Source of the DNA: Thermoproteota archaeon
Lineage (GTDB): Archaea; Thermoproteota; Methanomethylicia; Methanomethylicales; Methanomethylicaceae
DNA: 64,000 bases
NCBI GenBank assembly: GCA_029887795.1
Contig: JARXPE010000003.1
Span: forward strand, 28,600 to 92,599
Direction: 5' to 3'
Positions 12,715-46,043 of this stretch are shown piece by piece. The notes under the pieces are model-generated. The model was not told where the DNA came from and did no database searches. It was given only the letters and a program-made list of their open reading frames with translations. Within the stretch, counting starts at the first letter, position 1; each line of letters begins with the position of its first letter. The translations under genes and the position numbers were made by a program.

Positions 12715-13359
12715 ATGGGGAACGAATTGACGAGACTGAAAACACTTCTAACAGAACTCTCACGATACGAAATTCCAAAGGGTCCGTCCCCTGCTTTTAC
12801 CCCCGTCCATATTGTTAAGGCACTCCTCTTATTGGAGAAAGGCAGTATGGGTCGCCAATCAATGTCAAAAATGCTTGGTCTTGGAGAAGGATCAGCCCGA
12901 ACGCTTGTTAAAAAACTCACAGAGCGTGCGCTGGTCTCCGTCGACCCCGTCGGGGGCTGCAATTTGACGAATGAAGGAAGGCTTATAGTAAATGAACTTC
13001 GCCAGACAATTTTATCCTCAAAAGAGTTTACTTTAGAAGATTTTGATATAAAACTCCCCTCTTTCGCAGTTCAGATCAGGGGTCCGTCCGCATTTACTAT
13101 TCCGATCACAAAGCTCAGGGATGTTGCAGTCAGGAACGGGGCAGAGGGCATGTTGGTGTTCACTGTCAAGGACTCGAAGATATCGCTTCCGATGATAGTG
13201 GACGACGTCTCAAAAGACTATCCCAAGCTTGTATCACTGATTAAAAACTCCTTCTTGCTGGAGGATGGAGATTTCATATTCATAGGGTTCGCAGAAGACA
13301 AAAATGCTGCGGAACTTGGAACGCTTGCGGCTGCTTTATTCTGCATCCTTGAATCTTGA
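12715..13359 (+). CDS. DUF4443-like archaeal protein (putative winged-helix regulator) linked to the ABC transporter
   Basis: 214 aa; N-terminal helical/wHTH-like region. Family assignment is from memory, not from a search. Confidence 0.4.
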   Translation: MGNELTRLKTLLTELSRYEIPKGPSPAFTPVHIVKALLLLEKGSMGRQSMSKMLGLGEGSARTLVKKLTERALVSVDPVGGCNLTNEGRLIVNELRQTILSSKEFTLEDFDIKLPSFAVQIRGPSAFTIPITKLRDVAVRNGAEGMLVFTVKDSKISLPMIVDDVSKDYPKLVSLIKNSFLLEDGDFIFIGFAEDKNAAELGTLAAALFCILES

Positions 13360-13444
13360 TTTTCTTCACTCAAATCCTCAAAGATTTTTGGCGAAAATTA
13401 TAAATTTATGACACATTAAGACATTTTTGAGGGAGGTTATTGTC

Positions 13445-14428
13445 ATGAAAAAAAGTATTATAGTACTATCAATTATCCTTATTGTAGCTTTTGGTACTGT
13501 GGCGGGACTGTACGGAACTGGGTTCCTCTCGCCCGCACCAAAAGTAAAGGTCCGTATAGGTTATCTTACAGGAGACTTACACCATCTGGCTCTTCATGTC
13601 GCAGTTGCGAGAAATTATTTTGCGCAGTACGGCCTTGAATATGAATTATATGAGTACATAAACGGACCAACCCTAATGCAGCATTTTGTGGTCGGGGAGC
13701 TTGATTTTGCATATGTTGGCACCCCTCCAGCATTGACGGCAAGGGCCAGCGGAATATCCTCCAATGCAACACACCTGCCCGTCGTAATAGGTTCTGGGAA
13801 TTTAGAGGGGTCTGCCTTGGTGGTGAACCCTGCCATTATTAAGAATGTAGGCGACCTAGAAAACAAAAAAATTGGGACGCCTGGCACAGGAACAATTCAA
13901 GACGTCCTAATCTCAACCTACGCAAAGAACAATAACCTAACAATCACAAAATATCCTGGGCGGATCTCCGATCTGCCGCTGCAGTATGGAAGGGGCGAGA
14001 TCGACGGATTTATTGGTTGGGAGCCCTACCCCTCGATTGCCGCTTATCAATACAACGCATCAATACTGCTCACCTCCCATGAAATCATGCCAAATCACCA
14101 ATGCTGTGTTCTTGTGGTCTCTGACAAGTTCCTCGCAGCACATCCCGAAATAGTGGATAAAATGGTCGCAATACACAAGGCTTCAATTGACTTTATCAAC
14201 ACCAACCCTGCCGAGGCTAAACAGCTCGCGATGAACATCACCAAACTACCAATGCCCGTGATAGAGCTTGCATTCTCACACATGTCCTTCTCAAAATCAG
14301 TAAACGTTGAGAGCATTAGAGCCTTCCTAGTCGACATGATAAGGCTCGGCATAATCAAAAATATAGATGTAAATCAGGTGGATAACTTCATAAACGGCTT
14401 TATAAATACCAAATACGTTGCTGGTTAA
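13445..14428 (+). CDS. ABC transporter substrate-binding protein, NitT/TauT (SsuA/NMT1-like) family
   Basis: Signal/anchor helix followed by an SsuA-like periplasmic-binding fold. ATG at 13445 sits behind a GAGGGAGG ribosome-binding site. Confidence 0.8.
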   Translation: MKKSIIVLSIILIVAFGTVAGLYGTGFLSPAPKVKVRIGYLTGDLHHLALHVAVARNYFAQYGLEYELYEYINGPTLMQHFVVGELDFAYVGTPPALTARASGISSNATHLPVVIGSGNLEGSALVVNPAIIKNVGDLENKKIGTPGTGTIQDVLISTYAKNNNLTITKYPGRISDLPLQYGRGEIDGFIGWEPYPSIAAYQYNASILLTSHEIMPNHQCCVLVVSDKFLAAHPEIVDKMVAIHKASIDFINTNPAEAKQLAMNITKLPMPVIELAFSHMSFSKSVNVESIRAFLVDMIRLGIIKNIDVNQVDNFINGFINTKYVAG

Positions 14429-14439
14429 ATGTGATCCCA

Positions 14440-15225
14440 ATGAAAAAACAATATCGGCGCCTGCGGTCTTTGCTCTATGCATTATCATCAGTTATCATAT
14501 TCTTTATTTTTTGGGAACTGATAGCCCTCTATTCTCCGTCTCCCTATCTTCCAGATCCTTACTCGGTTCTGAGGGCTTTCATCACAATCCTGACAGTTGG
14601 AGATGTTGACGGCTATACACTTACTTGGCATGCAGTTGTGAGTCTTGAGCGTGTCTTGCTAGGATTCGCTGTTGGCACTGCAACAGGCATTCCTATTGGA
14701 ATGCTACTGGGGATAAAACCCACACTAAAGGGCGCAGTAACGCCCATCATCGAGCCGCTCCGATTCATTCCACCAATAGCGTGGATCCCGCTTTCGATCG
14801 TTCTACTCATAGGCTTGTGGAGATATATCTTTTTAATATGGATCGGGGTTTTCTTTCCCGTACTATTGGATACCATAGCCGGTGTAAAAAGAACCTCAAT
14901 AACACTGATACAGATGGCGAGGACATTTGGAGCGGACAATAAAAAAATCATCACAAAGATCGTATTTCCGAGCTCCCTTCCTGAGATCATGAACGGGCTT
15001 AGGGTGGGTCTTGGGGTCGGCTGGATGTGCATAGTGGCTGCTGAGATGATAGGCGGCGAGCCTGTTGGTCTCGGAAGGCTGATCCTAAAATATGCAAACC
15101 TGCTCCAAATTGATGTGGTAATAGTGGGCATGATAACAATTGGTCTGATAGGTCTCGCGCTGAATTATCTCATTCTACTATTAGAGAAGAGGATGTTTAG
15201 GTGGAGGGTTGAGATTAGGGCGTAG
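14440..15225 (+). CDS. ABC transporter permease, NitT/TauT (SsuC-like) family
   Basis: Six transmembrane segments and an EAA-like loop; immediately follows the binding protein. Confidence 0.8.
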   Translation: MKKQYRRLRSLLYALSSVIIFFIFWELIALYSPSPYLPDPYSVLRAFITILTVGDVDGYTLTWHAVVSLERVLLGFAVGTATGIPIGMLLGIKPTLKGAVTPIIEPLRFIPPIAWIPLSIVLLIGLWRYIFLIWIGVFFPVLLDTIAGVKRTSITLIQMARTFGADNKKIITKIVFPSSLPEIMNGLRVGLGVGWMCIVAAEMIGGEPVGLGRLILKYANLLQIDVVIVGMITIGLIGLALNYLILLLEKRMFRWRVEIRA

Positions 15226-15996
15226 GTGTGCACATTGAAAAAAGCGATCTTGCTCGAATCGGTATCAAAAAAATACGAGGTCGGCTCCAGTTCCCTAGAA
15301 GTTATTAAAGACCTCACATTTGACGTAAACGAAAATGAATTTGTCTGCATCGTCGGACCATCGGGCTGTGGTAAGACCACGCTGCTCAGAATCGTCTCGG
15401 GGCTTGAACCTCCCTCTTCTGGCAGGGTTCTCGTTTTTGACACCCCTCCAGACCCCAGAAGGCAGAAGTTCGGTGTGATCTTCCAAGAAGACTCTTTGCT
15501 TCCATGGAGGACTGTTCTTGGGAACGTCAAATTTGGGCTAGAGCTTCAGGGCTATAAAGAGACTGAACATGAAAAGATCGCCAGAACTTATATCGAGTTG
15601 GTGGGTCTGCAGGGGTTTGAAAACTACTACCCGCACCAAATATCGGGTGGTATGAAGAAGAGGGTTGCAATAGCTAGGGCTCTAGCTATAAACCCTGATC
15701 TCATACTTATGGATGAGCCCTTTGCGGATCTAGATGCACAGACGAGGTCTCTCATGCAAAGGGAGCTACTGAATGTATGGTCAAAACTAAATAAGACTGT
15801 CCTGTTTATAACTCACAATGTCGAGGAAGCGGTCTTTCTTGCTCAAAGAGTCTTTGTTCTGACCAAGCGCCCCTCGAAGGTTAAGCAAATAATCAACATC
15901 GATCTTCCCTATCCAAGAGCTAGGCTTAGCCCTCCCTTCATATCATACCGTGAGCGCATATTGACCGCCTTCCATGAGGAATTGGAGGGTATCTGA
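15226..15996 (+). CDS. ABC transporter ATP-binding protein, NitT/TauT (SsuB-like) family
   Basis: Walker [10 protein letters not shown], signature LSGGMKKRVAIARAL, Walker B LILMDEPF; GTG start abuts the permease stop. Confidence 0.85.
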   Translation: MCTLKKAILLESVSKKYEVGSSSLEVIKDLTFDVNENEFVCIVGPSGCGKTTLLRIVSGLEPPSSGRVLVFDTPPDPRRQKFGVIFQEDSLLPWRTVLGNVKFGLELQGYKETEHEKIARTYIELVGLQGFENYYPHQISGGMKKRVAIARALAINPDLILMDEPFADLDAQTRSLMQRELLNVWSKLNKTVLFITHNVEEAVFLAQRVFVLTKRPSKVKQIINIDLPYPRARLSPPFISYRERILTAFHEELEGI

Positions 15997-15997
15997 A

Positions 15998-16546
15998 ATG
16001 GAAAAAGATAAAGATCTAACTATTCGTGACGAGCTGATAAATGCTGCTTTGACTTCCAACGAAGCGTTCTCGTCAACCCTTAAATCTATAATGCGGCGTA
16101 TGGATATCACTGCTAAGGATCTGAGTGAAGGCTCTGGCGTCCCCCTCAGCACCATAAATAAGATACTTTCTGAATGCAGAGACCTCCGCCTATCAACACT
16201 CAGAGATATTCTGAGATATCTCCATTCTCTTGAAACACCTCCTGCAGACATTATTATAGGAGTAATCGCTGCAAGGCCGTCTCTCGACGCGATTTCCAAG
16301 CATCAGCTATTGGCAAAAGGTAAACGCGTGATAATAAAAGAATACCCTGCCTTAACAATAGAAGATGCCATCATAAGCGCGATTAAGGCAGAGCGAGAGC
16401 ATGTGAACGGTCTAGTCTGCGCCTCTATAGTAGCCAGTATAATAGAAAAGTTTGTGCGAATCCCAATCGCCACAATAAAGGTCGAGGAATCAAACATTTT
16501 AGACTCCGTACACCTACTTGTGGAAAAAATAACCTCTACAAGCTAG
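15998..16546 (+). CDS. XRE-family helix-turn-helix transcriptional regulator with an uncharacterised C-terminal domain
   Basis: HTH segment ITAKDLSEGSGVPLSTINKILSECRDLRLSTLRDILRYL. ATG at 15998 behind GGAGGG; the track's ATG at 15974 lies inside the ABC ATPase gene. Confidence 0.55.
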   Translation: MEKDKDLTIRDELINAALTSNEAFSSTLKSIMRRMDITAKDLSEGSGVPLSTINKILSECRDLRLSTLRDILRYLHSLETPPADIIIGVIAARPSLDAISKHQLLAKGKRVIIKEYPALTIEDAIISAIKAEREHVNGLVCASIVASIIEKFVRIPIATIKVEESNILDSVHLLVEKITSTS

Positions 16547-16707: not shown

Positions 16708-18042
16708 ATGCCAAAATATCCGGACAAAGTGAACTTGTACGACGACCGCGGAAAACTTTTTGAGACAAACGTTCCAGTTGAGGCTCTGAGCCCACTGAAA
16801 AACACTGCTATACAAAAAATCATCGCTTACGTAAAGCAATGCGTTGCGGTTAACTTGGAAGGTGTGGAAAAGGCGCTAGCTACAGGAGAAGTCGGCGGAA
16901 AATGGTGCATCATTAGAGGTAGATCTTTGAAACTCGATCTGGTAAAGAACGCAGGCAGCGTGGCGGACTCTTTGAAGAAGTGCTTGCAAGTAGATCCCGA
17001 TGACGACACAGAAGTAAAGGTTCTAAAGGGTGGAAAGCACCTCCTCGTAAAGGTTCCAGCAAAGAGGTTAAACGCTGGAGTTGAGTACACTACCGGAGCA
17101 ACAGCAGTGGCTGCTGCCCTCTGCTGCACAATAATTGAGAACTTTAATGTGAACATATGGGATGCAGACCTAGTACACGCTGCCGTCTGGGGAAGGTATC
17201 CGCAGACCATGGAGATGCTGGGTGGAAATGTGTCTTCACTATTGGCAGTGCCACAACAAAATGAGGGTATGGGCTACGCCCTTAGGAACATACCATGTGC
17301 ACACATCGCTCTCATCGCAAAGAAGAACGCTATGAATGCTGCCGCCCTCTCATCGATCTTGGAACAGACTGCGATGTTCGAGATGGGTGATGCCATTGGT
17401 AGCTTCGAGAGGTTCCACCTCTTGGGTCTAGCCTACCAGGGATTGAATGCTGACAACATAGTCTACGACCTTGTGAAAGAGAATGCAAAAACTGGAACAC
17501 TCGGAGATGTTGTCATTTCAACAGTGAAGAGAGCCCTATCGGATGGTGTCATCAAACCCTTAAAGAAGACACCGTCTGGATACACGCTCTACACCACAAG
17601 CGATCTCAATAAGTGGAATGCCTATGCTGCTGCAGGTCTATTGGCTGGAACAATGATCACTTGCGGTGCTGCCAGATCTATGCAACACGCTCCATCAGTC
17701 TTCATATACTTTAACGACCTTTTGGAGAGGGAGACTGGACTTCCAGGTGTGGACTTTGGTAGAGTCACAGGTACAGGCGTGGAAATGTCATTCTTCAGTC
17801 ACTCAATCTATGGTGGAGGAAATCCTGCCGTATTCCACGGAAACCACATAGTGACTCGACACAGCAAGGGCTTCACCATTCCATGCGTTGCTGCTGCCGT
17901 GGCGCTTGATGCTGGAACCACCATATACACCCCAGAGAGGATCAGCGGCGTAGTTGGTGAGGTCCTGAGCGAGGTACCTGAGCTTAGAGAATCTTTACGC
18001 TATGTGAATGAGGCCGCGGTCTCAATAAAAGGAGGAGTCTAA
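16708..18042 (+). CDS. mcrB: Methyl-coenzyme M reductase beta subunit
   Basis: [15 protein letters not shown]..., ...ALRNI..., [49 protein letters not shown] are hallmark McrB blocks. Start at the ATG at 16708 behind a ribosome-binding site; the track start at 16642 is an over-extension. Confidence 0.95.
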
Positions 18043-18044
18043 AA

Positions 18045-18821
18045 ATGGTAGAATATAAGCCCCAATATTACCCTGGAGGATCAAATGTAGCCGCCAATAG
18101 GCGGAAATACATCGATCCCAACTACAAGCTAAGAAAGCTAAGAACAATAAGCGACGATGACTTAGTTCGATTAATGGGTCATAGGGTCCCAGGCGAGGCT
18201 TACAAGAGCGTCCACCCGCCACTGGAAGAACTTGGCGAGCCTACATGCCCAATCAGGGAGATTGTAGAACCTACGCCCGGGGCAAAAGCCGGTGACAGGA
18301 TTCGTTACATACAATTCACAGACTCTGTATACTTTGCCCCATTGACTCCCTACATGAGAGCTTGGATGGGTCATATGCGATACCGTGGAGTGGACATTGG
18401 TGTTCTATCGGGGCGTGTCCCTCTTGAGGCCAGAGAGCGAGATCTTGAGAAGGTTGCTAAGGAACTCGTTGAGACCGAGATCTTCGATCCGGCGAGGGTC
18501 GGGATCAGGGGTGCCACAGTTCACGGTCATGCTTTGAGGCTCGACGAGAACGGTCTCATGTTCGATGCCCTGCGCAGGTTCCAGTATGATAAGAACAAGG
18601 GCGAGGTCGTCTATGTTAAGGACCAGGTTGGAGTTCCGCTCGACAGACCGATATACGTAGGAAAACCCACCCCTGAAGAGGAGCTGAGAAAAATAACCAG
18701 CCAGTTCAGAGTTGACGGAGAAGCCTTCAGGAATGACAAGGAACTGATTGAGTTCGTTCAGAGGATTCACATGCTCCGAACGGAAGCAGGTTTCGATCCT
18801 AACAAGGTGAAAGATCTATAG
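18045..18821 (+). CDS. mcrG: Methyl-coenzyme M reductase gamma subunit
   Basis: [55 protein letters not shown] are McrG blocks; starts 2 nt after the mcrB stop. Confidence 0.95.
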
Positions 18822-18832
18822 GAGGAATTGTA

Positions 18833-20503
18833 ATGAGCGAAGAGAAGAAGATGTTCCTAGAAGCGCTCAGGAGAAAGTTCAAGGAGTCTCCTGAAGAGAA
18901 ACAAACAAAATTCTACATATATGACGGATGGAAGCAGTCAAAGAGAAAGAGGGAGTTCGTAGAAGCTGCTCAGAAAATAGCCAAAGAGAGGACCGTCCCC
19001 TTCTACAACCCTGACCTCCACCTCGGCGGCATCCCATTAGGGCAGAGAGTCTTGATGCCTTACCGTCTATCGGGTACAGACATCTATTGCGAGGGTGATG
19101 ACCTTCACTTCATAAACAACGCCGCCATGCAGCAGATGTGGCATGACATAAGGCGGACTGTGATCGTCGGACTCGATGCTGCGCACACGGTCCTACAGAA
19201 GAGGCTCGGCAAAGAGGTCACCCCTGAAACCGTGAACCACTATCTAGAGGTACTTAATCACGCGCTGCCTGGTGCGGCTGTAGTTCAGGAGCACATGGTC
19301 GAGACACACCCTGGATTGGTCTCTGACAGCTATGTCAAGGTATTCACAGGAGACGACGAGCTCGCGGACGAGATCGACGATAGATTTCTTATCGACATAA
19401 ACAAGGAGTTCCCTGCAGAGCACGCGGCACAGCTAAAGGCTGCCATCGGAAAACGCATTTACCAGGTATGCCGCATGCCAACACTCGTGGCGATGACCTG
19501 CGACGGAGGTACAATGTCAAGATGGGCGGCTATGCAGATCTCAATGTCAATGATAAATGCATACAAACTTATGGCTGGAGAGGCTGCGGTGGGAGAATTC
19601 GCCTTCGCAGCAAAGCACGCAGAAGTCATAGAGATGGGCACTCTTATGCCTTGGAGGCGAGCAAGAGGTCCCAACGAGCCCGGAGGAATTCCATTGGGCT
19701 ATATGGCGGATATCTGCCAGGCCTCGAGGGTCAAGCCCGAGGATCCAGTCTGGGTCGCCTTGGAAGCCATTTCCATGGCAGCTGTCCTATACGACCAGTT
19801 CTGGTTCGGAAGCTACATGTCTGGTGGCGTCGGGTTCACGCAATATGCAACTTGCACCTACACTGACAACATCCTTGATGACTTCTGCTATTATGGCGCC
19901 GAGTACGTTAAAAAGAAGTACGGCGGTTTCGCAAAAGTCAAGCCGAGCTGGGATGTGATAAACGATGTTGCCACGGAGGTCACATTATACGGTCTGGAGC
20001 AATATGAAAGGTACCCTGCGCTGATGGAGACTCACTTCGGAGGATCCCAGAGGGCTGCCGTAGTAGCAGCTGGTGCTGGCGTCTCCGTGTCACTGGTGAC
20101 CGGTCATTCCACTGCAGGAATCAACGGTTGGTACCTCAGCCAGCTACTCCACAAGGAAGAGATGGGTCGACTTGGCTTCTACGGCTACGACTGCCAGGAC
20201 CAATGCGGATCAGCCAACAGCTTCTCATGGAGGAGCGACGAAGGTCTACCCTTCAACCTGAGGGGAGTGAACTACCCCAACTATGCTCTCAATGTCGGAC
20301 ACCAGTCAGCATACTGCGGTATAGTCTCCGCCGCTCACGGTGGGAGAGGCGACGCTTGGACAACAAACCCGTTGATAAAAGTTGCCTTTGCAGATAAGGA
20401 TCTGAAATTTGACTTCACGCACCCGAGGCTATGCTTCGGAAAAGGCGCTCTCAGGGAGTTCATGCCAGCTGGCGAGCGCGATCTAATAATCCCAAGCCAC
20501 TAA
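18833..20503 (+). CDS. mcrA: Methyl-coenzyme M reductase alpha subunit
   Basis: [73 protein letters not shown] are McrA blocks. GGAGG ribosome-binding site precedes the ATG. Confidence 0.95.
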
Positions 20504-34567: not shown

Positions 34568-34639
34568 TTTTTTGTATATTAATGTACAACAACGTTTAAA
34601 TATAGCTATTTATAACCTATTCAGTCCACTGGTGATCCC

Positions 34640-36004: not shown

Positions 36005-36083
36005 TCTGCTTTGATTCGATTCCAACTATTTCTTATTTTCCTTCTATTCCACATTGTGAATAACTGATGCTTACAAAGTAAGG

Positions 36084-36587: not shown

Positions 36588-36713
36588 ACTAATTTCCCTG
36601 TACAATTATATGCAAAAACGCTTATATATGGTTATTCTAAACAAATCATTCCCAAATGTCTCAACCTTCTAAACGGAATCAAGACTGGTATCCACAAATT
36701 ATTACTCTTGAAT

Positions 36714-37268: not shown

Positions 37269-39156
37269 ATCTCCTCACGACCCTTGGTGCCTTAACATTG
37301 GCTACTACCTCAGGAAAATCTTCCAGTTTACTATTGGGCATGTACATGGCATTAACGTATTCCTCCTCAAAAATTGGTTCTGCTGCCAGCTCTACATACT
37401 TAACCGCCTTCGCGATAGCCCCTGCCTCACACCTCATCTCTACTGATTTGAGGCACATCCTCGCACCAGATCCAGCTGTATTCCCCAAAAATGAGATCTT
37501 GGATATTGGCAGCTCCGGTATCATCCCTATCGTTCTGGCATTCTCGGGATCTATGTAATTCCCAAAAGCGCCAGCTATTATTATCCCCGATAGGTCTTCT
37601 CTCCTGAAACCACTCTTTCTCATGAGCGTCATGTACCCTGCATACATCGCAGCTTTTGCCTTCTGAATCTCCCTAATGTCCTCCTGAGTTATTACAATGT
37701 CCTCTTTTCCGGATGCTGTATCCTCTTTAAACACCAAGACAAACTCCTTTCCGTCTGCCCCGTCCCTGATCCTCTTATGATCTTGAAGCACGATCTTTCC
37801 TGACATATCAATTACTCCTCTTTTGAGCATCTCCGCGACCGCGTCTATTATGCCCGAACCACAAATGCCTCTGGCTCTCTCTCCGTCTATAGTATTGTAC
37901 TCCACCTCAAAATCCTCTCCAATCTTGACTTTTTCTATGGCGCCGCTGGCGGCTCTCATTCCGCATTTGATGTGTGCCCCTTCAAATGCTGGACCTGACG
38001 CGGTCGAGCATGACCATAGCCCCTCCTTACATCCCAATACTACCTCGGTATTTGTTCCTACATCCATTAGCAGCGTCAACCTCTCCTTCTCATGTATTCT
38101 AGACGCTAAAATATCCGCTATCGCATCAGCCCCGACAAAACCCGCAACGTTTGGGAGCGTATGAATATTGCCCGCCGGGTTTATCCTAATGCCCAAATCC
38201 CTAGCTCTGACATTGTAAGCATTCCCCAAAACTGGGGGGTAAGGTGAAAATCCGAGTGACCTGACATTAAGCCCCAAGAAGAGGTGATGCATCGCTGTAT
38301 TTCCCACAGCCACAAGCTCGTAGAGGTCTTCTCTCCTGATACCTGTTTCCTCAAGCCCTCTATCTATGAGTGAATTTATGCCGTCGATTATTGCTTTTTG
38401 AATTTCTCTAAGGTTTTCATCAGACTGGGAGGCGTATCCTATCCTTGATATGACATCTTCTCCATACCTTATCTGCGGATTCATTATGCCATCTGCGAAT
38501 ATGATCCCTCCATCCAATAAGTCCACTATGAAGACGGCAAGCTTGGTTGTACCTATATCCACTGCTACCCCATAGAGTTCTTTGGTTCTGTCCCCCAGCT
38601 GAATATTCACAATCTCATGATTATTCAAGATTGTAAAAGTAACCTTCCAATCACCCTCCCTTAGTATCTTTGGCATCTTCTTAATGGTATCATAATCTAT
38701 TAGAACTGGATCAAACCCCATTCCTGCCAGGACCTGGGCGATCCTGACATCGTCTCCCTTAGGATCTTGAAGAGAGGGTGGCAAAACTTCCACATAGACT
38801 TTTTTGACGTTCGGCCTCAGAGTGATTGCAGGCTCCTTGCCCATTATCACGAGCCTCTGTCTCCCGACCCTGCTTTGGTCTGGTACTTGGACCACCATGT
38901 CCTCCTCAACAATTAACTGGCACGCCAGGCGGTAGCCTTTTCTTATTCTCTCATCACCGACCCTTTTCTTCTCTTGTTCAGTAGGGGGCGGGGCTCTTCC
39001 CTCAAGTATTTCAACTAGACATTTACCGCAGAAACCCTTTCCGCCGCAGATGTTTGCCAAATCGACTCCTGCCCTCAGTGCCGCAAACATGACAGTGGAT
39101 CCTGCGGGGACTGAAACCCTCTTCCCCTCAGGCAAGAACTTCACTTCAAACTCCAT
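37255..39156 (-). CDS. RACo/RamA-like ATP-dependent reductive activase (N-terminal 2Fe-2S ferredoxin domain plus ASKHA ATPase/DUF4445)
   Basis: N-terminal plant-type ferredoxin Cys pattern (CGGKGFCGKC...C). Central VAVDIGTTK and DVGTNTE ASKHA phosphate motifs. Start ATG overlaps the stop of the upstream A2-like gene (atggagtttga). Confidence 0.65.
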   Translation of the reverse strand: MEFEVKFLPEGKRVSVPAGSTVMFAALRAGVDLANICGGKGFCGKCLVEILEGRAPPPTEQEKKRVGDERIRKGYRLACQLIVEEDMVVQVPDQSRVGRQRLVIMGKEPAITLRPNVKKVYVEVLPPSLQDPKGDDVRIAQVLAGMGFDPVLIDYDTIKKMPKILREGDWKVTFTILNNHEIVNIQLGDRTKELYGVAVDIGTTKLAVFIVDLLDGGIIFADGIMNPQIRYGEDVISRIGYASQSDENLREIQKAIIDGINSLIDRGLEETGIRREDLYELVAVGNTAMHHLFLGLNVRSLGFSPYPPVLGNAYNVRARDLGIRINPAGNIHTLPNVAGFVGADAIADILASRIHEKERLTLLMDVGTNTEVVLGCKEGLWSCSTASGPAFEGAHIKCGMRAASGAIEKVKIGEDFEVEYNTIDGERARGICGSGIIDAVAEMLKRGVIDMSGKIVLQDHKRIRDGADGKEFVLVFKEDTASGKEDIVITQEDIREIQKAKAAMYAGYMTLMRKSGFRREDLSGIIIAGAFGNYIDPENARTIGMIPELPISKISFLGNTAGSGARMCLKSVEMRCEAGAIAKAVKYVELAAEPIFEEEYVNAMYMPNSKLEDFPEVVANVKAPRVVRRYVRR

Positions 39157-40828
39157 GCTTCGCCTCACCAAAATATCTGTTTATAACATCTTTTGGCTCG
39201 CCATCCATTATAACCTTCCCGTCCTTGATCAACACGCACCTATCAGCAACTTCCTCTACAAATTCTAATTGATGGCTGACCAGGATTATGGCTGGCTTGA
39301 ACCATATCTTTATCCTCTTGAGGAGGTTAGCTACCCTCCTAAGGGTCAAAGGGTCTAGATCCCCAAAGGGCTCGTCCAAAATCAAGACTTTGGGATTCGA
39401 TACCAAAGAGAGTGCCAAGGCGACCCTTATCTTCTCCCCACCAGACAATTGATAGGTTTTCTTTGTAAGTACCCCTTCGGTCATTCCGAACCATTCAAGG
39501 ATTTTTAAAGCCAACTCCTTTGCCTTCTCCGGATCTTTTTCTTTGAAGATCTCCTTTAAGAGGCTCCTGTCAAGCCCTGCCTCTTTGAGTTTTATCTCCA
39601 TCTCCCCTTCTGGCAGTTCTGCAAGCCTTCCCAGAACGTCAACCACCGCATCACTTATCCCCTTTCTCTCAGCCCTGCGAACCGCCTCCTCAAGCGACCT
39701 ATAGTCCTTTATTCCTATGAGCGCTGCAAAGAGTTCAAGTACGCTTGACCAGTAAGGGAGGTCGAACTCTTGGTGGAGAATTCCTATCCTCCGCCTCGCC
39801 CTGAGGCTCTTTCTCCCAAACTTCCCCAGAGGGACCCATTCTCCCCTGTAAAAGATCTTAACATCCCCTGCGTCTGGCAACTCTAAACCCGCCAACATCC
39901 TCATTATGACAGTCTTGCCAGCGCCAGAAGGTCCTACAATGCCCGTTATTTCCCCAGTTCTGAAATTTAGAGTGGTCTCCTTTAACTCAAAGACCTTACC
40001 ATACGGAACTAGTTTGTAAACCTTCCTCGTTTTTTCAATTTTGAGGACATCCTCCCCAAGGATCTTTACCTTACTAAGAGGCTCTTCAAGTCTGGAAAGA
40101 AAGCTCTCCACCACGGTTCTGGTTTCCCCCTCCATTGAAACCCTTCCCTTCTCAAGGAGTATGGCCCTGTCTGCCAAGGACATGTGAATTGAAGGATTAT
40201 GTGAGACGAAGAGGACGCTCATTCCGTACTCGTCCCTTGCTCTCTTCAAAGCATCAACCAATGCTGCCCTACTCTGGAAATCTGTCATAGTCCCAGGTTC
40301 GTCCAAGAGCAGGAGTCTTGGCCTTCTAGCGATCTGTCTAGCCACAATCAACCTTTGCTTTTCACCACCGCTGAGAACTCCTGACCAGAGATCTGCTCTA
40401 CTTTCCAGTCCCACAACCTTCAAGACTTCCATCGCCCTTGCCCTGTACTCCTCATACTCTCCTTCGTCTTGAGGAATTACCTCATCCCCGATATCATAAT
40501 ACACAAGCGCCCTCACCACGTTGTCCACAACGGAATCTGGCCACAGACCGAAGGTTCTCTGGAGCTGTATTGCAGTCCTTCTTTGTAGTTCCAGAAAAGA
40601 CTCTTTCGGGGAGTCCGGATTAACTTCGAGGTCTTCAAAGACTATTCTTCCGCCGTCGAAACCCTCAACACCCCTAAGAATTCTCAATAACGTTGTTTTG
40701 CCCGCCCCGCTCTCACCTAGGATTCCAACAATCTCGCCCCTGTCGAGTCGGAAAGAGACGGAGTCGAGCACCTTAAAGCCAGAAAAACTCTTGATAACAC
40801 CATCACACAAAAGCAACAATCGTATCAC
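39146..40828 (-). CDS. Second AtwA-like soluble tandem ABC ATPase (component A2 paralogue) with a long helical insert in cassette 2
   Basis: GESGAGKTT/LSGGEKQRLIVARQI/LLLDEPG and GPSGAGKT/LSGGEKIRVALALSL/ILDEPFG; no transmembrane domain. Roughly 80-aa insert (KDYRSLEEAVRRAERKG...KILEWFGM) between the Q-loop and the signature motif. Confidence 0.6.
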   Translation of the reverse strand: MIRLLLLCDGVIKSFSGFKVLDSVSFRLDRGEIVGILGESGAGKTTLLRILRGVEGFDGGRIVFEDLEVNPDSPKESFLELQRRTAIQLQRTFGLWPDSVVDNVVRALVYYDIGDEVIPQDEGEYEEYRARAMEVLKVVGLESRADLWSGVLSGGEKQRLIVARQIARRPRLLLLDEPGTMTDFQSRAALVDALKRARDEYGMSVLFVSHNPSIHMSLADRAILLEKGRVSMEGETRTVVESFLSRLEEPLSKVKILGEDVLKIEKTRKVYKLVPYGKVFELKETTLNFRTGEITGIVGPSGAGKTVIMRMLAGLELPDAGDVKIFYRGEWVPLGKFGRKSLRARRRIGILHQEFDLPYWSSVLELFAALIGIKDYRSLEEAVRRAERKGISDAVVDVLGRLAELPEGEMEIKLKEAGLDRSLLKEIFKEKDPEKAKELALKILEWFGMTEGVLTKKTYQLSGGEKIRVALALSLVSNPKVLILDEPFGDLDPLTLRRVANLLKRIKIWFKPAIILVSHQLEFVEEVADRCVLIKDGKVIMDGEPKDVINRYFGEAKHGV

Positions 40829-40900: not shown

Positions 40901-41812
40901 TCACGAGAAATAGGACTCTGGCAAGATCCTAACAAGTATGTAATCCCTCATTTGAGATCTTGTTATACGAGATAGTTCATCGAGCCTTTTTCCCTCAACG
41001 ACCACAGAGGCAACTTTCTCCTTGTACTCGTCGTACGGCAACTTAATCCTGACGCCGTCGACCTTCAATGTTACTGGATTTGGTGAGAGGGCGTCCAAAA
41101 CTTCCGGAACCTGCCTCTCCACCTCGTTCTTTACAAGCGCTGGCTCTATTATTAATGGATCCAAATCCATTTCCCTCCGCCTTCCCTCGATCAGTTTTCC
41201 TGCTAGCTCTGAGACCCTTCTCAACTTCTCTATCATGTCTACAGTTCTTGCCCTCTCTGGATATCTCCCTATTCCTCCAACATAACCACTCGCTCCCTCC
41301 ACCTCCAGTTCGGGTGGTCCGCCAGTCACTATCACTGGTACGGATAACTCCTTGAACAACTTTGGCTTAAATCTCCTCAAACAGTGCTCAAAGTTCCCGA
41401 GCGTAAAAACTGCGAGATCATGTTCTTCAATAAGCTGCCTCTCCTGTACTGATGTATGCACTATCTTCTGACCTACTCCCCTAGCCAGTCCCATTATGTT
41501 TGTCTTTGCACCGTGCCTCCTCAAGTTCTCAGCTATATCACAGGCAGGGTGTGGAAGGTGGTGCCTGGATAATGTAGGGGCCACAACTACAACCTCGGTT
41601 CCTATGAGTGGGGCATCTCTGAGCTTGCCCTTTACCTCTTGGACTATTTCTTGCAACCTTCCAACTTCTTCCTCTGGGATCGCCAAATTCATTATTAGGT
41701 CCAGTCCGATCACAGTCTTTTGTATCACAAAGCCTCCAACATCTTCTACAAACTCCAGTAAAAGTTCATGCTTATACATGCCGCCCTCAAAGATGACATA
41801 TTTTAACATCAC
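40901..41812 (-). CDS. Candidate methanogenesis marker protein 7
   Basis: 303 aa; size, operon position (with marker 17-, marker 3- and A2-like genes) and composition fit Mmp7. Assignment by context and memory. Confidence 0.45.
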   Translation of the reverse strand: MMLKYVIFEGGMYKHELLLEFVEDVGGFVIQKTVIGLDLIMNLAIPEEEVGRLQEIVQEVKGKLRDAPLIGTEVVVVAPTLSRHHLPHPACDIAENLRRHGAKTNIMGLARGVGQKIVHTSVQERQLIEEHDLAVFTLGNFEHCLRRFKPKLFKELSVPVIVTGGPPELEVEGASGYVGGIGRYPERARTVDMIEKLRRVSELAGKLIEGRRREMDLDPLIIEPALVKNEVERQVPEVLDALSPNPVTLKVDGVRIKLPYDEYKEKVASVVVEGKRLDELSRITRSQMRDYILVRILPESYFS

Positions 41813-42360
41813 TCGTCCACCGCCAAATCAGCAGCCATTTTCTTCCAATCCTCTCTGATGGGGTCCTCCGCAGCCATAACAGTCAGAAGATCGCCTTCCT
41901 TAATCACGTGCCGAACCCTGAACCCTTCGGGTATCACTCTATTCACGAGTTCGTTCACCTTATCCGAAACACTTACCCTCTCCTTCTTTATTTTGAGCTC
42001 CTTCAAACTCTCTGGCTCTGCGCCTCTCACCACGATCTCTGTTCTTCCAGATTGCTCGACCTTGTCTCTTCCATAAGTGCTCCACAGACTTCTAAGCGCA
42101 TCTCCAAGGTCAATCTCATCCTCTAATATGACCCTCACGCTACCAGATCTTGCCTCTATCCTTGCTAGCTCCCCTATCTTATTCTTGATCTCGCGCTCCC
42201 TATATTTGACCTTCATTACAAAGAGCGGGAACTCGGGCTTTATCAGGACTGCAATCCCTGTTACACTATTCCCTAGCGCTAGATCCTCCACGTTTCTCTC
42301 AACAATATGTCTATACATCTCTCCCCCCGTGTTGTCTGAAGAGACCACGACTATCTTCAT
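41809..42360 (-). CDS. Candidate methanogenesis marker protein 17
   Basis: 183 aa; 4-nt overlap with the downstream gene; context-based assignment. Confidence 0.4.
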   Translation of the reverse strand: MKIVVVSSDNTGGEMYRHIVERNVEDLALGNSVTGIAVLIKPEFPLFVMKVKYREREIKNKIGELARIEARSGSVRVILEDEIDLGDALRSLWSTYGRDKVEQSGRTEIVVRGAEPESLKELKIKKERVSVSDKVNELVNRVIPEGFRVRHVIKEGDLLTVMAAEDPIREDWKKMAADLAVDE

Positions 42361-42361
42361 C

Positions 42362-42781
42362 TTAGCTCCCCCCTGCCTCCTCCACTATCTTCTTAAGCTT
42401 CGAGACGTCCAACCTCGTTTTCGGCTCTGTTTCCTTTATCTCCAATACACCCTCTGCCTCAAGCGCCTTTGATACATTCTTCAGCACATTCCTCTCGGCA
42501 CCCAGCATAAAATACCCTGGTCTTGGTCCTCCTCCCCTCTTCGCCCTACATATCCTCTCGTCCCCAATCCTGTAGCCCCTCACCTTGAAGAATATTCTGT
42601 TAGGGTCCATTTCCCTCAATGCTTTCATTACCTTCTCCAACTCCGCCTCTTCTCCCTCTATTAAAACTCCATAGCAGGTCTCCTTGTAATTAACTCCGCC
42701 CAGCGCTGCCACTTTTTCCATAAGCATAGAAGGTGTTAGATTCGAGTCTGGCGATAACATCACCACAAAAGTCTTTATCAT
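42362..42781 (-). CDS. Small conserved protein, candidate methanogenesis marker 5/6 family
   Basis: 139 aa; sits between the marker 3-like and marker 17-like genes; translationally coupled. Confidence 0.35.
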   Translation of the reverse strand: MIKTFVVMLSPDSNLTPSMLMEKVAALGGVNYKETCYGVLIEGEEAELEKVMKALREMDPNRIFFKVRGYRIGDERICRAKRGGGPRPGYFMLGAERNVLKNVSKALEAEGVLEIKETEPKTRLDVSKLKKIVEEAGGS

Positions 42782-44301
42782 GCCCCCTCCTCCATAATGT
42801 ATACCTTTCTCCCTTCCCTCAGACCATTCAATATGGCGAGATTTTCCAGAACTCTGCCGACAATGTTGGTTCCATCAAAGCTTTCTGCCGTCGGACCAAA
42901 CTTGTCACTCTCCATTAGTCTGATACCGACCATTCCGGCGAACTTCTTAACAGAGTTTGTGACCCCTATTATTCCGGAACCGACTTTACCCTTGGGAAGA
43001 TTCTCGGGCATAAGGCCTTTTCCCAAACTCTCATCACCTTTAAAGAGAACAACTTCCTTCGTTGAAAAGAATACCTCTAGACGCCCAACGCGTCTAAGAT
43101 CTAAGCCAGTGACTCTCCTGAAGTATTTCACAGAGATCGGAGCATATCTCTCATTTAACTGAATCTTCAAGATCTGATCACGAGGAAGTCCTGTACATCT
43201 GACAACCCCTTGCTTGTATATCTCTACCGTGGTAGCTGGTGAGTGGTCCACTACGATCCCATCATCCCCTAAATAGCCCTCCCTGACATGGATGATTCCT
43301 GCCCTCTCTAACGCCCCTTTTACCTCTCCTTGGGTTCTCCCAAGAAGATCTAACCTCTCTGGAATTAGAACCGTTTGTATCATATCTCCTTCCTTGGCAA
43401 CATCAGCAAGCTCAATTCCACTGACGACTCGCCCAGCTATCACGTGATCTTTTGAGATTGCCGACTTCTGAAGATATATGTAAACCAACCCTGCATTATT
43501 ACCGGAGCTTCTGACAGAAACGACCCCCCTTTCTCTACTCCCCACATCCTCGCTTTTTATGGAGAGTAGTCTGATTTTATCATGCGCAATAAAGCGGCTA
43601 GTCTTTCTGGCGACTGTAAAACCTTCGCTCAGCGCGTTATATACATGTTCCACACAAATAGGAGACTGAGGATTTAGTTGTATCTCCATTTTTGTAAATA
43701 TCATGTCGCCCTCGTTTAACTTGTAATCATTTTTGACCCGTACTAGCGATCCAGGATCAGACTTTTTCTCCCAGACTGGTAAAATCTTATTAATTTTATC
43801 TCCAATCCTGAAAGCCTCAAGCAAGTGCCTGCCATAAACTACGCGCCCCAGGACTCTGCAGCCCTTCGGTGGAAAGTAAAGCGCGCTATGGGTCCGCTTA
43901 CTGAATACAAGGTGCGAGCTCTCATTGCTGGAACCTGAGAGGCTCACAGTAATTTCATATCTTCGCAACTCGACCTCTTCTTTGGAAGGCAGGAATTCTG
44001 TTTTGGTGGGTCCAAATACCACAGCATCGATAGTTGCCCACCTGACACCACATCCTTCAAAGCTCTTGTAAGCCTGCTTCCACTTTTCTAACTCATCATC
44101 GCACTCCCACCTTAGTATCATCCTGCCTCGCGTTGTATGAACCTCATAAAGGTTTGTGGGGATGCGCTCTACATCTATTTTTCTTTTGACGGCAACTATG
44201 TAGCCTTCTTTGACTTTAATGCCCGATCTCTCCAAAAAATCCCCCAAGCTTTCATCTTTTCGCGCTTCCATTTCGACGCCATCAACTACTACTCTCAACA
44301 C
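42778..44301 (-). CDS. Candidate methanogenesis marker protein 3 (UPF0288-like), first gene of the activation operon
   Basis: 507 aa; size and position fit Mmp3; transcribed divergently from mcrDC. Confidence 0.5.
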   Translation of the reverse strand: MLRVVVDGVEMEARKDESLGDFLERSGIKVKEGYIVAVKRKIDVERIPTNLYEVHTTRGRMILRWECDDELEKWKQAYKSFEGCGVRWATIDAVVFGPTKTEFLPSKEEVELRRYEITVSLSGSSNESSHLVFSKRTHSALYFPPKGCRVLGRVVYGRHLLEAFRIGDKINKILPVWEKKSDPGSLVRVKNDYKLNEGDMIFTKMEIQLNPQSPICVEHVYNALSEGFTVARKTSRFIAHDKIRLLSIKSEDVGSRERGVVSVRSSGNNAGLVYIYLQKSAISKDHVIAGRVVSGIELADVAKEGDMIQTVLIPERLDLLGRTQGEVKGALERAGIIHVREGYLGDDGIVVDHSPATTVEIYKQGVVRCTGLPRDQILKIQLNERYAPISVKYFRRVTGLDLRRVGRLEVFFSTKEVVLFKGDESLGKGLMPENLPKGKVGSGIIGVTNSVKKFAGMVGIRLMESDKFGPTAESFDGTNIVGRVLENLAILNGLREGRKVYIMEEGA

Positions 44302-44580
44302 ATCATCCCTATCCTTCTCAAATGAAGTTCCATTAATTAACCTTTATAGAAATTCAACCTATTTTTGTGTATTTGCTTTTGCCTAGGGCTTTGCCAAAAT
44401 CAGCAAGAAAACCTCTGAGCATCAAAGATGGGCTTCTCAATTTTTCGCCAACGTCCTCATCCTGACTTAAATTTTTTTGTTTTACTATTCCGTATCAACT
44501 TTTAAAAGACTTGGATGATCTACCACCGCCTAAGCAACTATTTATTTATTCGATCCTATTAATAGCCTAGGGGTTATACT
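44302..44580. promoter_or_regulatory. Divergent promoter region between the mmp3 operon (-) and mcrDC (+)
   Basis: 279-bp AT-rich spacer with TATA-like boxes on both strands (ttatagaaatt, tttatttatt). Confidence 0.3.
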
Positions 44581-44898
44581 TTGGAAACAAAAGACAAGCC
44601 TGAAATTGAGATCCTGCCTAGGCGACTTATGCCAAGCAAAAAAGCCGAGGATTTTGCTGCACTGTTGAAGGACACTGGAATGGTCTCGGAGGTCCTATTC
44701 CAGAGGCACAACTACTCCGGAGGAGGGTATATGGTAGGAAGGTTCATTCTCTTAATATCCGAAAATTCGCCAGAAACTGTTATTGGTAAGATCAAACCAT
44801 TGTGCGAACAGGTTATGCCGTATGGCTATGACATCAGAGTAGGTCGCTTCACCAAACCTAGACCTACTGTAAAAGATTACTTGGCTGGAAGGGTGTAA
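44581..44898 (+). CDS. mcrD: McrD-like protein (short form, 105 aa)
   Basis: EIEILPRRLMPS...AEDFAALL and C-terminal MPYGYDIRVGRFTKPRPTVKDYLAGR match conserved McrD blocks; TTG start; lacks the usual C-terminal roughly 40 aa. Confidence 0.55.
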   Translation: METKDKPEIEILPRRLMPSKKAEDFAALLKDTGMVSEVLFQRHNYSGGGYMVGRFILLISENSPETVIGKIKPLCEQVMPYGYDIRVGRFTKPRPTVKDYLAGRV

Positions 44899-44917
44899 AG
44901 GTTTAGGGGCGATTTGC

Positions 44918-45559
44918 TTGGACGAAGCTATTGGAAGGAGCTCTCAGATCGTGGATTGTCGGGAAGCTCAGGGCATAGGGGAGGGTGGCGGACTCGCCCA
45001 ACGTGGGACGATTTCGGAATCGGAACGCTTCGACGTGGTCGCGGTTGCAATGTCTCCTTCTAAAAGACATATCACAAAACCCATCTGTGAAATAACTTAC
45101 GGTCTAAGGGAACAGGGCATCAGAACGAGCGTCTTAGTTCTCGAGTCTGGATCAGGGGTGCCTTCCGACTCGCCCTATGGAGGCGCACCAGGTGGAACAA
45201 TGGCTGGAATCAACGAAAAAGAGATACTCCAGATAAGAAGATACAAACTCGCCCTATTCCACTTGGGCGGCATTGGGGGACATGTTGTCTATAAAGCTAA
45301 AACCTTTCTGCGATATGTCGACATCCCCACCATTATAGTCTGTGAGGCACCTGTAGACTATGAGGATTTTGCCAAGGTTGGGATCATCACCCGACTTGTA
45401 CGCCCGCCTCCCGATAAGGTCGAATGCCTAGGAACGATTGTCGATATTGTGACTGGCGTTGTGAGGGGTGTCAGCGCACCGCGCGACAAACTCAACGAAA
45501 TAGTGACAAAAGTAAAATTTTGGCTTAGCAAATTTGATGAGGAACATAAAAAAAGGTGA
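44918..45559 (+). CDS. mcrC: Methyl-coenzyme M reductase operon protein C
   Basis: VDCREAQGIGEGGGLAQRGT, VAVAMSPSKRHITKPICEITYGLRE, LFHLGGIGGHVVYKAKTFLR, IIVCEAPVDYEDFAKVGI are canonical McrC blocks. Confidence 0.85.
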   Translation: MDEAIGRSSQIVDCREAQGIGEGGGLAQRGTISESERFDVVAVAMSPSKRHITKPICEITYGLREQGIRTSVLVLESGSGVPSDSPYGGAPGGTMAGINEKEILQIRRYKLALFHLGGIGGHVVYKAKTFLRYVDIPTIIVCEAPVDYEDFAKVGIITRLVRPPPDKVECLGTIVDIVTGVVRGVSAPRDKLNEIVTKVKFWLSKFDEEHKKR

Positions 45560-45566
45560 AATTAAA

Positions 45567-46043
45567 TTGGCAAAGATATTCATATTTCCGCCCAACAGCC
45601 TGATTCTCTTTGACTTAGTGAAAAGGGAGGGTCATACCCCCTTGGGGTTGGGGGAAGAGGTTGCAAAGAATGTAAACAGACCCGAGATCGATTCTCCACC
45701 AATGAACATAACTCCTGACTTCCCTAGGAGAGGTCTAAAATACGCTGCCATAGAGGTCCCTTCAGGCGTTAGGGGGAGGCTGGCGCTGATCGGTCCTCTT
45801 GTTGAGGAGGCAGATGCCGCCATTATTGTGGAAGAACCAGAGGCACTTTTCGGGTGTGCCAGTTGTGGAAGAACAAACGAATTTCTAATTTACCTAATAA
45901 AACAGCGCAACATACCTTTCATTAAAGTTCCATATCCTTCTACAGAAGAAGATGCGAGAATCATGGTTTCAAAAATAAGAAAATTTCTCTCATCACTCAA
46001 TGAAATCCAGAAGACAAATACAACGATGGCGACGAAGACATAG
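45567..46043 (+). CDS. Conserved small protein cotranscribed with mcrDC (uncharacterised)
   Basis: TTG start 8 nt after a GGTGA ribosome-binding site that lies inside the mcrC 3' end; 158 aa; CASCG motif. Confidence 0.4.
   Translation: MAKIFIFPPNSLILFDLVKREGHTPLGLGEEVAKNVNRPEIDSPPMNITPDFPRRGLKYAAIEVPSGVRGRLALIGPLVEEADAAIIVEEPEALFGCASCGRTNEFLIYLIKQRNIPFIKVPYPSTEEDARIMVSKIRKFLSSLNEIQKTNTTMATKT

Follow-up and report, generated by a model that had tools for sequence, protein, structure and literature searches.

We analysed a 64,000-nucleotide stretch of DNA from a Thermoproteota archaeon of the Methanomethylicaceae (contig JARXPE010000003.1 of GCA_029887795.1; hereafter the window), in which a segment of about 33 kb (12715-46043) concentrates the genes for methyl-coenzyme M reductase (MCR) and for proteins associated with its modification and activation. 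We consider it likely that this region has descended vertically as a chromosomal neighbourhood that is typical of the class Methanomethylicia and gathers the genes for an active MCR; among the known MCR and activation clusters it represents a class-specific variant, not a transferred island. An open reading frame (ORF) map combined with NCBIfam and Pfam profile searches (scores are given below as bits/curated cut-off) recovered all genes named in a preliminary description of this DNA at its coordinates, and the gene list of that description was borne out nearly item by item. The families of its marker-like ORFs were confirmed by the profiles with the exception of the Mmp2-like gene, which lies below the cut-off, and the cautious "-like" wording proved apt for this gene, for a paralogue of component A2 and for a RACo-like gene, all of which score below the NCBIfam cut-offs. 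Sixteen marker genes are found among 34 consecutive genes, a clustering far beyond chance (hypergeometric P ~5e-19 uncorrected, ~8e-16 when multiplied by the number of windows) under genome figures that were assumed rather than measured (~1600 genes, 38 markers). Moreover, the comparison of synteny with other MCR-encoding archaea revealed an arrangement conserved throughout the class: a scan with one genome per species and the McrC alignment as query yielded 14 Methanomethylicia loci, including the complete genomes of M. petrocarbonis and M. verstraetei as well as Methanomethylicus mesodigestus, and the order unk184<RACo<A2'<Mmp7<Mmp17<Mmp6<Mmp3 | McrD>McrC>Mmp5 was present in all 14 of them (unk184 being a 184-aa protein and A2' the A2 paralogue).

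The affiliation of the window agrees across several of its genes. McrA is closest to that of Ca. Methanosuratincola subterraneus (91% identity), the next matches being an unannotated set at 78-88% (including Nezhaarchaeales at 83%), then Korarchaeum (74%) and Archaeoglobi (73%), and the exact McrA sequence is present in four metagenome-assembled genomes (MAGs) at NCBI, including GCA_038885815.1. Homologues of Mmp3 and RACo carry the annotation Methanomethylicaceae or Verstraetearchaeota, and the nearest species representative of McrC is Methanomethylicota WYZ-LMO10 (95%).

The structural MCR genes form a predicted plus-strand operon (16708..20503) composed of mcrB (16708-18042), mcrG (18045-18821) and mcrA (18833-20503), which match TIGR03257, TIGR03259 and TIGR03256 above the cut-off (659/516, 390/172 and 1005/768, respectively) and enclose neither mcrD nor mcrC; mcrB most likely starts at the ATG at 16708, which is preceded by GGAGG 6 nt upstream and by an AT-rich region, rather than at the TTG at 16642. 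In addition, the window encodes all six non-MCR subunit families of the MCR activation complex solved in M. maripaludis in 2025 (Ramirez-Amador et al., 2025, PMC12176620; PDB 8S7V/8S7X/9H1L), namely McrC, Mmp7, Mmp17, Mmp3 and A2, each above its NCBIfam cut-off, and DUF2098, recognised by Pfam. It is the last of these that makes the predicted gene set complete: the "small acidic protein" of the preliminary description (21959..22270, minus strand), whose identity had been missed, is by its Pfam match (76.8 bits, cut-off 25) DUF2098, the predicted small subunit of the activation complex. Its best PDB matches are the DUF2098 chains L of 8S7X, 8S7V and 9H1L, although the E-value of 0.006 is weak; the M. 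maripaludis DUF2098 protein co-purifies with McrC, a loop of which binds it (PMC12176620).

The similarity extends to the residues that hold the metal clusters. McrC matches chain I of 8S7V (E 2.8e-73), Mmp7 chain H (E 2.5e-79) and Mmp17 chain G (E 6e-14), and by alignment to chains I and H we examined the ligands that the M. maripaludis paper names for three [8Fe-9S-C]-type clusters. The four ligands of McrC (C12/H49/C55/H118 in M. maripaludis) are all kept as C14/H51/C57/H122, and the three of Mmp7 (H84/C90/C143) as H85/C91/C144. Component A2 (AtwA, TIGR03269; 23223-24851, minus strand; 766/517), with its twin ABC nucleotide-binding domains (NBDs), also keeps the Cys4 Zn motif in NBD1, as CKEC and CPRC at residues 73 and 89. 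The window thus resembles the M. maripaludis complex in its six predicted non-MCR subunits, in the McrC and Mmp7 ligands and in the A2 Zn motif, but it differs in possessing an extra A2 paralogue and in the position of mcrC, which in M. maripaludis lies inside mcrBDCGA; M. maripaludis is, moreover, a euryarchaeon, and no MCR activation complex has been isolated from Thermoproteota.

We propose that mcrBGA provides the enzyme, that the short McrD is its likely F430-insertion chaperone, and that YcaO and TfuA would put thioglycine into McrA. McrC, Mmp7, Mmp17, Mmp3, A2 and DUF2098 would constitute an ATP-driven activation complex, in which electrons would travel via the [8Fe-9S-C]-type clusters of McrC and Mmp7 to convert F430 from Ni(II) to Ni(I), and Mmp5, Mmp6 and Mmp15 would represent the rest of the "MCR activation operon" of the Methanosarcina type. 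Apart from mcrBGA, these genes appear to fall into three transcription units. The first would be mmp15-ycaO-tfuA-A2, a co-directional minus-strand run of mmp15 (26893-28149; 649/456), ycaO (Mmp1; 25578-26783; 464/365), the TfuA-related gene tfuA (24893-25618; 272/235) and A2, whose successive spacings of 109, -41 and 41 nt suggest a single operon. The second begins with mmp3 (42778-44301; 485/234), mmp6 (42362-42781; 136/126; described earlier only as small), mmp17 (41809-42360; 123/67) and mmp7 (40901-41812; 389/349), four minus-strand genes (40901..44301) whose reading frames overlap or abut, and would continue through the A2 paralogue and RACo to the 184-aa protein. The third would be mcrD-mcrC-mmp5, transcribed divergently from the second.

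A close parallel is found in M. acetivorans, where A2 and Mmp5, 6, 17, 7, 3 and 15 form an RT-PCR-verified "MCR activation operon" that appears essential, as no gene of it could be deleted (bioRxiv 10.64898/2026.03.18.712670). The same seven families occur in the window, all above the cut-off, and mmp3-mmp6-mmp17-mmp7 are contiguous and co-directional. However, in the window these genes occupy three separate sites, with mmp15 and A2 next to ycaO-tfuA and mmp5 next to mcrDC; mcrC and mcrD stand outside the mcr operon, divergent to mmp3; and the mmp operon is extended by an A2 paralogue lacking the Zn motif, by RACo and by the 184-aa protein.

The first of these additional genes (39146..40828, minus strand) starts 72 nt after mmp7 and encodes a twin-NBD ABC ATPase that scores 333/517 with the NCBIfam A2 model. 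Its best PDB match is A2 of M. maripaludis (8S7V/9H1L chain K, E 1e-71), and neither NBD has lost its Walker A, Walker B or LSGG motif; it is, however, only 32% identical to the A2 of the window, the segment with the Zn motif is deleted, the CxxC is absent and NBD2 carries an insert. Since the score lies below the curated cut-off and the Zn motif is missing, we class the predicted product as A2-like and not as an A2 equivalog. It belongs to a family distinct from A2, which includes genes next to mcrA in Nezhaarchaeota (L045), a gene directly upstream of mcrBDCGA in a JGI contig (L094) and a more distant gene of Methanotrichaceae.

The A2-paralogue gene overlaps by 26 nt the next one (37255..39171, minus strand), which codes for a RACo-type ATP-dependent reductive activase with a 2Fe-2S domain and an ASKHA ATPase. 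Its product matches RACo of C. hydrogenoformans (3ZYY) over the full length (residues 7-622, E 1e-130); Cys42/48/51/84, which would bind the 2Fe-2S cluster, are present, and its homologues carry the Pfam domains Fer2, RACo_linker, Raco_middle and RACo_C_ter. With NCBIfam it reaches 533/800 for the AcsV "exception" model, and is thus not an AcsV equivalog, and 160 bits for the RamA subfamily. Judged by these features, the predicted protein is a bona fide RACo. It shares with RACo/RamA proteins such as 3ZYY the N-terminal 2Fe-2S domain, the linker, the middle domain and the ASKHA ATPase; unlike other RACo genes, which are encoded beside acs or methyltransferase-corrinoid genes, this one appears translationally coupled to an A2-like ATPase within the activation operon. 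The last gene of the operon, overlapping RACo by 14 nt, encodes the 184-aa protein (36714..37268, minus strand), for which Pfam, NCBIfam and PDB searches gave no match and a single-sequence AlphaFold2 model was unusable (pLDDT 35.8). Its position after RACo is conserved across Methanomethylicia, homologues are found inside Methanomassiliicoccales mcr clusters, and a further homologue directly follows RACo in MCR-less Jordarchaeales (L091, 8014-8553; E 5e-16). This Jordarchaeales copy seems either to be broken by an in-frame stop or to have escaped gene calling.

We did not adopt an MCR-specific role of RACo as the default reading, because its close relatives include genes in the corrinoid-methyltransferase contexts of Bathyarchaeia and Asgard archaea that lack MCR. 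The nearest relatives outside the class (~50% identity) come from MCR-less Bathyarchaeia, Jordarchaeales and Freyarchaeota, and the Jordarchaeales gene adjoins an MttB-family methyltransferase, a corrinoid protein and MtrH, followed by the 184-aa homologue. Because of these relatives in MCR-less archaea, one of them in such surroundings, we suggest that RACo, possibly with the 184-aa protein, most likely reactivates Co(II) corrinoid proteins of the methyltransferases that supply methyl groups to coenzyme M (CoM). A literature search on RamA or a corrinoid activase in Methanosuratincola found no report.

Alternatively, the A2 paralogue, RACo and the 184-aa protein could form a lineage-specific electron-input module, in which RACo and ATP would deliver low-potential electrons to the McrC/Mmp7 clusters and thereby reduce F430 from Ni(II) to Ni(I). 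The close packing of the three genes behind mmp7 in every Methanomethylicia locus would fit such a role, as would the MCR-adjacent position of the Zn-less A2 family in Nezhaarchaeota and L094 and the presence of 184-aa homologues within Methanomassiliicoccales mcr clusters; in addition, the physiological donor of the activation complex is not established, and its describers draw a parallel with ATP-driven Co(II)/Co(I) activation (PMC12176620). We nevertheless regard this module as unlikely, given the relatives of RACo just described and the fact that methyl-reducing methanogens need a corrinoid activase anyway. Moreover, L045 and L094 have the A2 paralogue beside MCR but lack a RACo gene within 10 kb; hence, the A2 paralogue and RACo seem to be distinct modules that only this class has brought together. 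If the module were real, it would indicate where the electrons for MCR activation come from physiologically, at least among the methanogens of the Thermoproteota. If RACo is instead the corrinoid reactivase that we favour, one operon would serve both ATP-dependent reductive reactivations, that of Co(II) to Co(I) and that of Ni(II) to Ni(I).

The divergent unit on the plus strand comprises mcrD (44581-44898), mcrC (44918-45559; 288/214) and mmp5 (45534-46043; 209/140), the last of which had been listed merely as one more small gene. McrD is short (105 aa) and scores 43.7/100 with TIGR03260 and 40.8/25 with Pfam PF02505 (MCR_D); it aligns mostly to residues 117-171, the C-terminal part, of the solved McrD 8W33. 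This short length (105-109 aa) is common to Methanosuratincola (109 aa), whereas the full-length McrD fold comprises ~130-170 aa. The gene map bears out the earlier statements that mcrD-mcrC is detached from mcrBGA and runs divergently from the mmp3 operon across 44302-44580, a junction retained in 14 of 14 Methanomethylicia loci. Nezhaarchaeota (L045) and a Guaymas Thermoprotei MAG (L077) likewise have mmp3 and mcrC meeting at a divergent junction; a detached mcrC that diverges from mmp3 looks like a Thermoproteota trait, and since the junction is conserved in Methanomethylicia and found in these two further lineages, a regulatory link between the mmp3 operon and mcrD-mcrC-mmp5 seems plausible.

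The further claim that this region (44302..44580, 279 bp) is a shared divergent promoter holds only in part, for the divergence is real but the spacer is not one compact shared promoter. It contains two separated TATA-like boxes: on the mmp3 side, the GTG of mmp3 is preceded at ~42-48 nt by the reverse complement of CCTTTATAG, and on the mcrD side TATTTATTTAT and CTATTAATAG lie ~15-45 nt upstream of the mcrD TTG. When compared with WYZ-LMO10 (L009), the ends of the spacer alone are conserved (84-100%; 85% over 48 nt, and 18/18 nt) and the middle is unique; neither the window nor the fetched loci contain a further copy of the inner part, and there is thus no evidence of a MITE (miniature inverted-repeat transposable element). 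In most Methanomethylicia the spacer measures 44-70 bp and holds two AT-rich boxes, and in relatives it ranges up to 175 bp, reaching 826 bp in WYZ-LMO10. The short form would represent a compact back-to-back promoter pair, and the spacer of the window an expanded version of it, whose two back-to-back promoters probably still link the mmp3 and mcrD units. In WYZ-LMO10, the spacer (7969-8794) contains extra sequence with several short hairpin-like GC-rich motifs and two N bases.

The preliminary description contrasted the compactness of the region with classical methanogens, in which it held these functions to be scattered. This is true for Methanococcales, whose mcrBDCGA has no other such gene within 10 kb, and for Methanotrichaceae with their lone mcrC, but it is overstated in view of the M. 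acetivorans operon and of Methanomassiliicoccales, in which 13 marker genes including mcr occupy ~16 kb (Borrel et al., 2014, PMC4153887). In our scan, ~30 Methanomassiliicoccales loci showed the order (YcaO, TfuA) McrB(D)GA ... A2-McrC-Mmp3-6-5-15-17-7. They resemble the window in bringing mcr, A2, McrC, Mmp3/5/6/7/15/17 and often YcaO/TfuA into one neighbourhood, and share with it homologues of the DUF4443 regulator described below, of the 184-aa protein and of DUF2098; both groups are H2-dependent methyl-reducing methanogens. Their cluster is, however, tighter (~16-17 kb vs 33 kb) and co-linear, has mcrD inside mcrBDGA, and lacks the housekeeping interruption, the embedded RACo and A2 paralogue and the adjacent ABC importer. 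Two further super-clusters are of interest. In L094 (JGI 3300005573 contig, 75% McrA), mcrBDCGA has an A2-paralogue-type ATPase and DUF2099 upstream of it and is followed by cfbA, Mmp2, cfbB, cfbD and cfbE; in Archaeoglobi (L095), the cluster opens with an NMT1-type ABC importer and continues with cfbE, cfbD, cfbB, Mmp2 and mcrBDCGA. In both, as in the window, MCR adjoins Mmp2/AIRS-family genes, L094 sharing in addition the A2-paralogue type and L095 the NMT1 importer; unlike the window, both keep mcrBDCGA intact, add F430 biosynthesis genes (cfbA-E, absent from the window) and have no Mmp3/6/17/7 operon within 10 kb. The mcr accessory genes are not discussed by Berghuis (2019). The clustering itself is neither surprising nor evidence of transfer; what is lineage-specific is the detached, divergent mcrDC-mmp5 and the extension of the mmp operon by the Zn-motif-less A2 paralogue, RACo and the 184-aa protein.

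Beyond the mmp half, Ca. M. subterraneus and a third lineage (L093) show the same layout of the mcrBGA half, and in both the left flank is conserved as well, with pyruvate:ferredoxin oxidoreductase (POR), a gamma-carbonic-anhydrase-like gene and DUF2124; the right flank, an MJ0093-like gene and HMG-CoA reductase, is also syntenic across genera. The whole layout, including the interruption or the outer flanks, is conserved in three lineages sampled, and because protein identities between these syntenic genera span 45% (Mmp17) to 91% (McrA), it is old. The interruption separating the two halves (28369..36605) encodes a DRG GTPase, ThiN-HTH, ThiDN, an Mrr-like protein, NadE, a 92-aa membrane protein, TpiA, TrpB2 and TrpY; the genes reported for it earlier (DRG, thiR/thiDN, nadE, tpiA and trpB2) are all there, and it measures 8.2 kb. 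In the complete genome of M. verstraetei (L092), TrpY, TrpB2, TpiA, NadE, Mrr-like, ThiDN, ThiN and DRG follow the mmp half in the order of the window; hence, the interruption is as conserved as the MCR genes. Its Mrr_cat/NERD-like nuclease-domain gene (32005-32520, minus strand), located between thiDN and nadE with a 4-nt overlap with nadE, has a counterpart at the corresponding site of M. verstraetei (40% identity), an unusual degree of conservation for a restriction-type gene.

This conserved interruption is what gives weight to the idea that the clustering has no regulatory meaning and merely reflects an ancestral gene order frozen in small, slowly rearranging genomes, since DRG, thiDN, nadE, tpiA, trpB2 and the Mrr-like gene have been kept in place as well as the MCR genes. 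We find this quite improbable, however, because the marker enrichment is far beyond chance, because independent lineages (Methanomassiliicoccales, Nezhaarchaeota, L094 and L095) have repeatedly placed overlapping gene sets by mcr in different orders, and because the overlapping frames of the mmp operon argue for co-translation. Co-regulation of the units, as proposed in the preliminary description, is plausible but unproven.

That description also raised the possibility that the region was transferred as a unit and recommended a check of GC content and codon usage, which, extended to the GC content of each codon position (GC1-3), gave a negative result for the whole of 12.7-46 kb. GC content and GC content at third codon positions (GC3) are 0.472/0.496 in the mcrBGA half, 0.471/0.501 in the mmp half, 0.476/0.502 in the left flank and 0.478/0.508 in the interruption, and codon usage matches among these four parts (correlations of relative synonymous codon usage, 0.85-0.93). 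No tRNA gene and no Rfam match were found, a search for long direct or inverted repeats found no meaningful ones flanking the cluster, and no mobility genes were present among the border genes scanned. The features by which a genomic island would be recognised (deviant composition, an adjacent tRNA gene, flanking repeats, mobility genes and patchy presence) were thus not observed for this arrangement, which all Methanomethylicia sampled carry at the same locus. A horizontally acquired island of 33 kb that moved as a unit, for which one might cite the extreme concentration of MCR-related genes and the companions held in common with the distant Methanomassiliicoccales (the DUF4443 regulator, the 184-aa protein and DUF2098, explicable by ancient transfer or common ancestry), is very improbable and already disfavoured for any recent event, given this composition, the synteny across genera of both the flanks (POR, DUF2124; MJ0093-like, HMG-CoA reductase) and the internal block, and the mostly vertical descent of mcr inferred for TACK lineages (Hua et al., 2019, PMC6783470).

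The sole compositionally deviant segment, and with it the acquisition-like signal, sits outside the MCR region, in a pst-phoU block at 47055-54575 (47-54.6 kb; GC 0.36-0.44, ~0.40, vs ~0.47 for the rest of the window). It contains genes for a PhoU/MazE-like protein, pstS, pstC, pstA, pstB, phoU, a 258-aa protein of no assigned family and an alpha/beta hydrolase, and is inserted between the MJ0093-like gene (46748-46996) and HMG-CoA reductase (54579-55844), which follow each other directly in the other fetched Methanomethylicia loci.

Several points weigh against our interpretation of the region as a vertically inherited neighbourhood organised for an active MCR. Operons and promoters were assigned from gene spacing, overlapping frames and conservation; the Mmp2-like gene, the A2 paralogue and McrD score under their curated cut-offs; and the importer upstream of mcrBGA, whose substrate is putative, also falls below its family cut-off. 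The 279-bp spacer is unlike the compact one of relatives, so that the divergent units could be more loosely coupled here. Low rearrangement rates, rather than selection, could partly explain the gene order, the interruption being conserved too.

The left part of the region adds a regulator and a transporter to the MCR genes. The gene at 12715-13359 (plus strand), with which the region begins and which had been left unnamed, encodes a DUF4443/CggR_N-type winged-helix regulator (Pfam DUF4443, 67.9 bits; PH0730-like_N, 33.8 bits). It has the same position in Methanosuratincola and L093, and homologues (26-33% identity) lie directly upstream of A2, and divergent from it, in ~20 Methanomassiliicoccales mcr clusters (L035-L086), which makes this protein a candidate cluster-specific transcription factor common to two phyla. 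It is followed by an SsuA/NMT1-type ABC importer (13427..15996, plus strand) of SsuABC-type architecture, with a binding protein (13427-14428; SsuA_fam 123 bits, cut-off 163.5), a sulfonate-type, SaoP/TauC-like permease (14431-15225) and a SaoA/taurine-like ATPase (15226-15996). The importer is conserved upstream of mcrBGA in three Methanomethylicia lineages, and an NMT1-type importer adjoins cfb-mcrBDCGA in Archaeoglobi L095 as well. In M. acetivorans, ssuABC has been described as encoding a transporter that is specific for CoM and induced when cells are starved of it (PMC12068725); given this precedent, known from M. acetivorans only, the putative substrate is most likely CoM or a related sulfonate, which the importer would probably take up. 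A literature search on CoM biosynthesis in Methanomethylicia returned nothing relevant. The 3' end of the ATPase gene is overlapped by a gene for an XRE-type HTH protein (15974..16546, plus strand; Pfam HTH_26 29.3 bits, cut-off 22; HTH_3 22.8 bits), whose position is conserved in Methanosuratincola and L093.

On the other side of mcrBGA, 28 nt downstream of mcrA, lies a DUF483 gene (20532..21119, plus strand; Pfam DUF483, 109 bits), the "Cys-pair protein" of the preliminary description, which has the same position in Methanosuratincola and L093 and is probably co-transcribed with mcrA; a PDB sequence search matched its product to no solved structure. The neighbouring "HAD phosphatase" (21172..21945, minus strand) is better described as a soluble P-type-ATPase-like HAD protein, as its NCBIfam matches are confined to the P and N domains of P-type ATPases and its PDB matches are isolated catalytic domains of CopA/CopB; a "soluble P-type ATPase" has been counted among methanogen-associated core proteins (PMC4153887). 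The Mmp2-like protein of the PurM/AIR-synthase family (22326..23255, plus strand) is encoded convergently with its minus-strand neighbours. Its match to TIGR03267 is full-length (3-307 of 1-322) yet under the cut-off (250.6 bits, cut-off 365), with the sll0787 family as runner-up (202 bits); AIRS-family genes adjoin mcr in L094 and L095 too.

Just outside the left border, a DUF2124 gene (11642..12151, minus strand; Pfam DUF2124 on the identical gene in L001) keeps its position left of the cluster in L007 and L093. Homologues occur 3-4.5 kb from the orphan mcrC in MAG loci of Methanotrichaceae/Methanosarcinales and directly after mcrA in L057, an association by position only, and DUF2124, which thus turns up near mcr genes of several orders, may be an unrecognised MCR-associated family. 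At the opposite end of the window, a very large ORF (59732-64000, plus strand; >1,423 aa) with a hydrophobic N-terminal segment runs past the right end; it probably encodes a protein of the surface or S-layer type.

The activation of MCR has only recently become open to study, as the complex was not solved until 2025, and then from a single euryarchaeon. We herein show that a Thermoproteota methanogen of a cultured class encodes the full predicted subunit set, with conserved cluster ligands and a distinct operon layout. Several families without an assigned role accompany MCR in more than one phylum and can serve as leads: the DUF4443 regulator, the 184-aa protein, DUF483, DUF2124, the soluble P-type-ATPase-like protein and the Zn-less A2 paralogue. 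The extension of the mmp operon by RACo and the A2 paralogue, the short McrD and the companions shared with other lineages may merit particular attention, and the suggested links of MCR to corrinoid reactivation, through RACo, and to CoM uptake would be useful leads for work with Methanosuratincola cultures.

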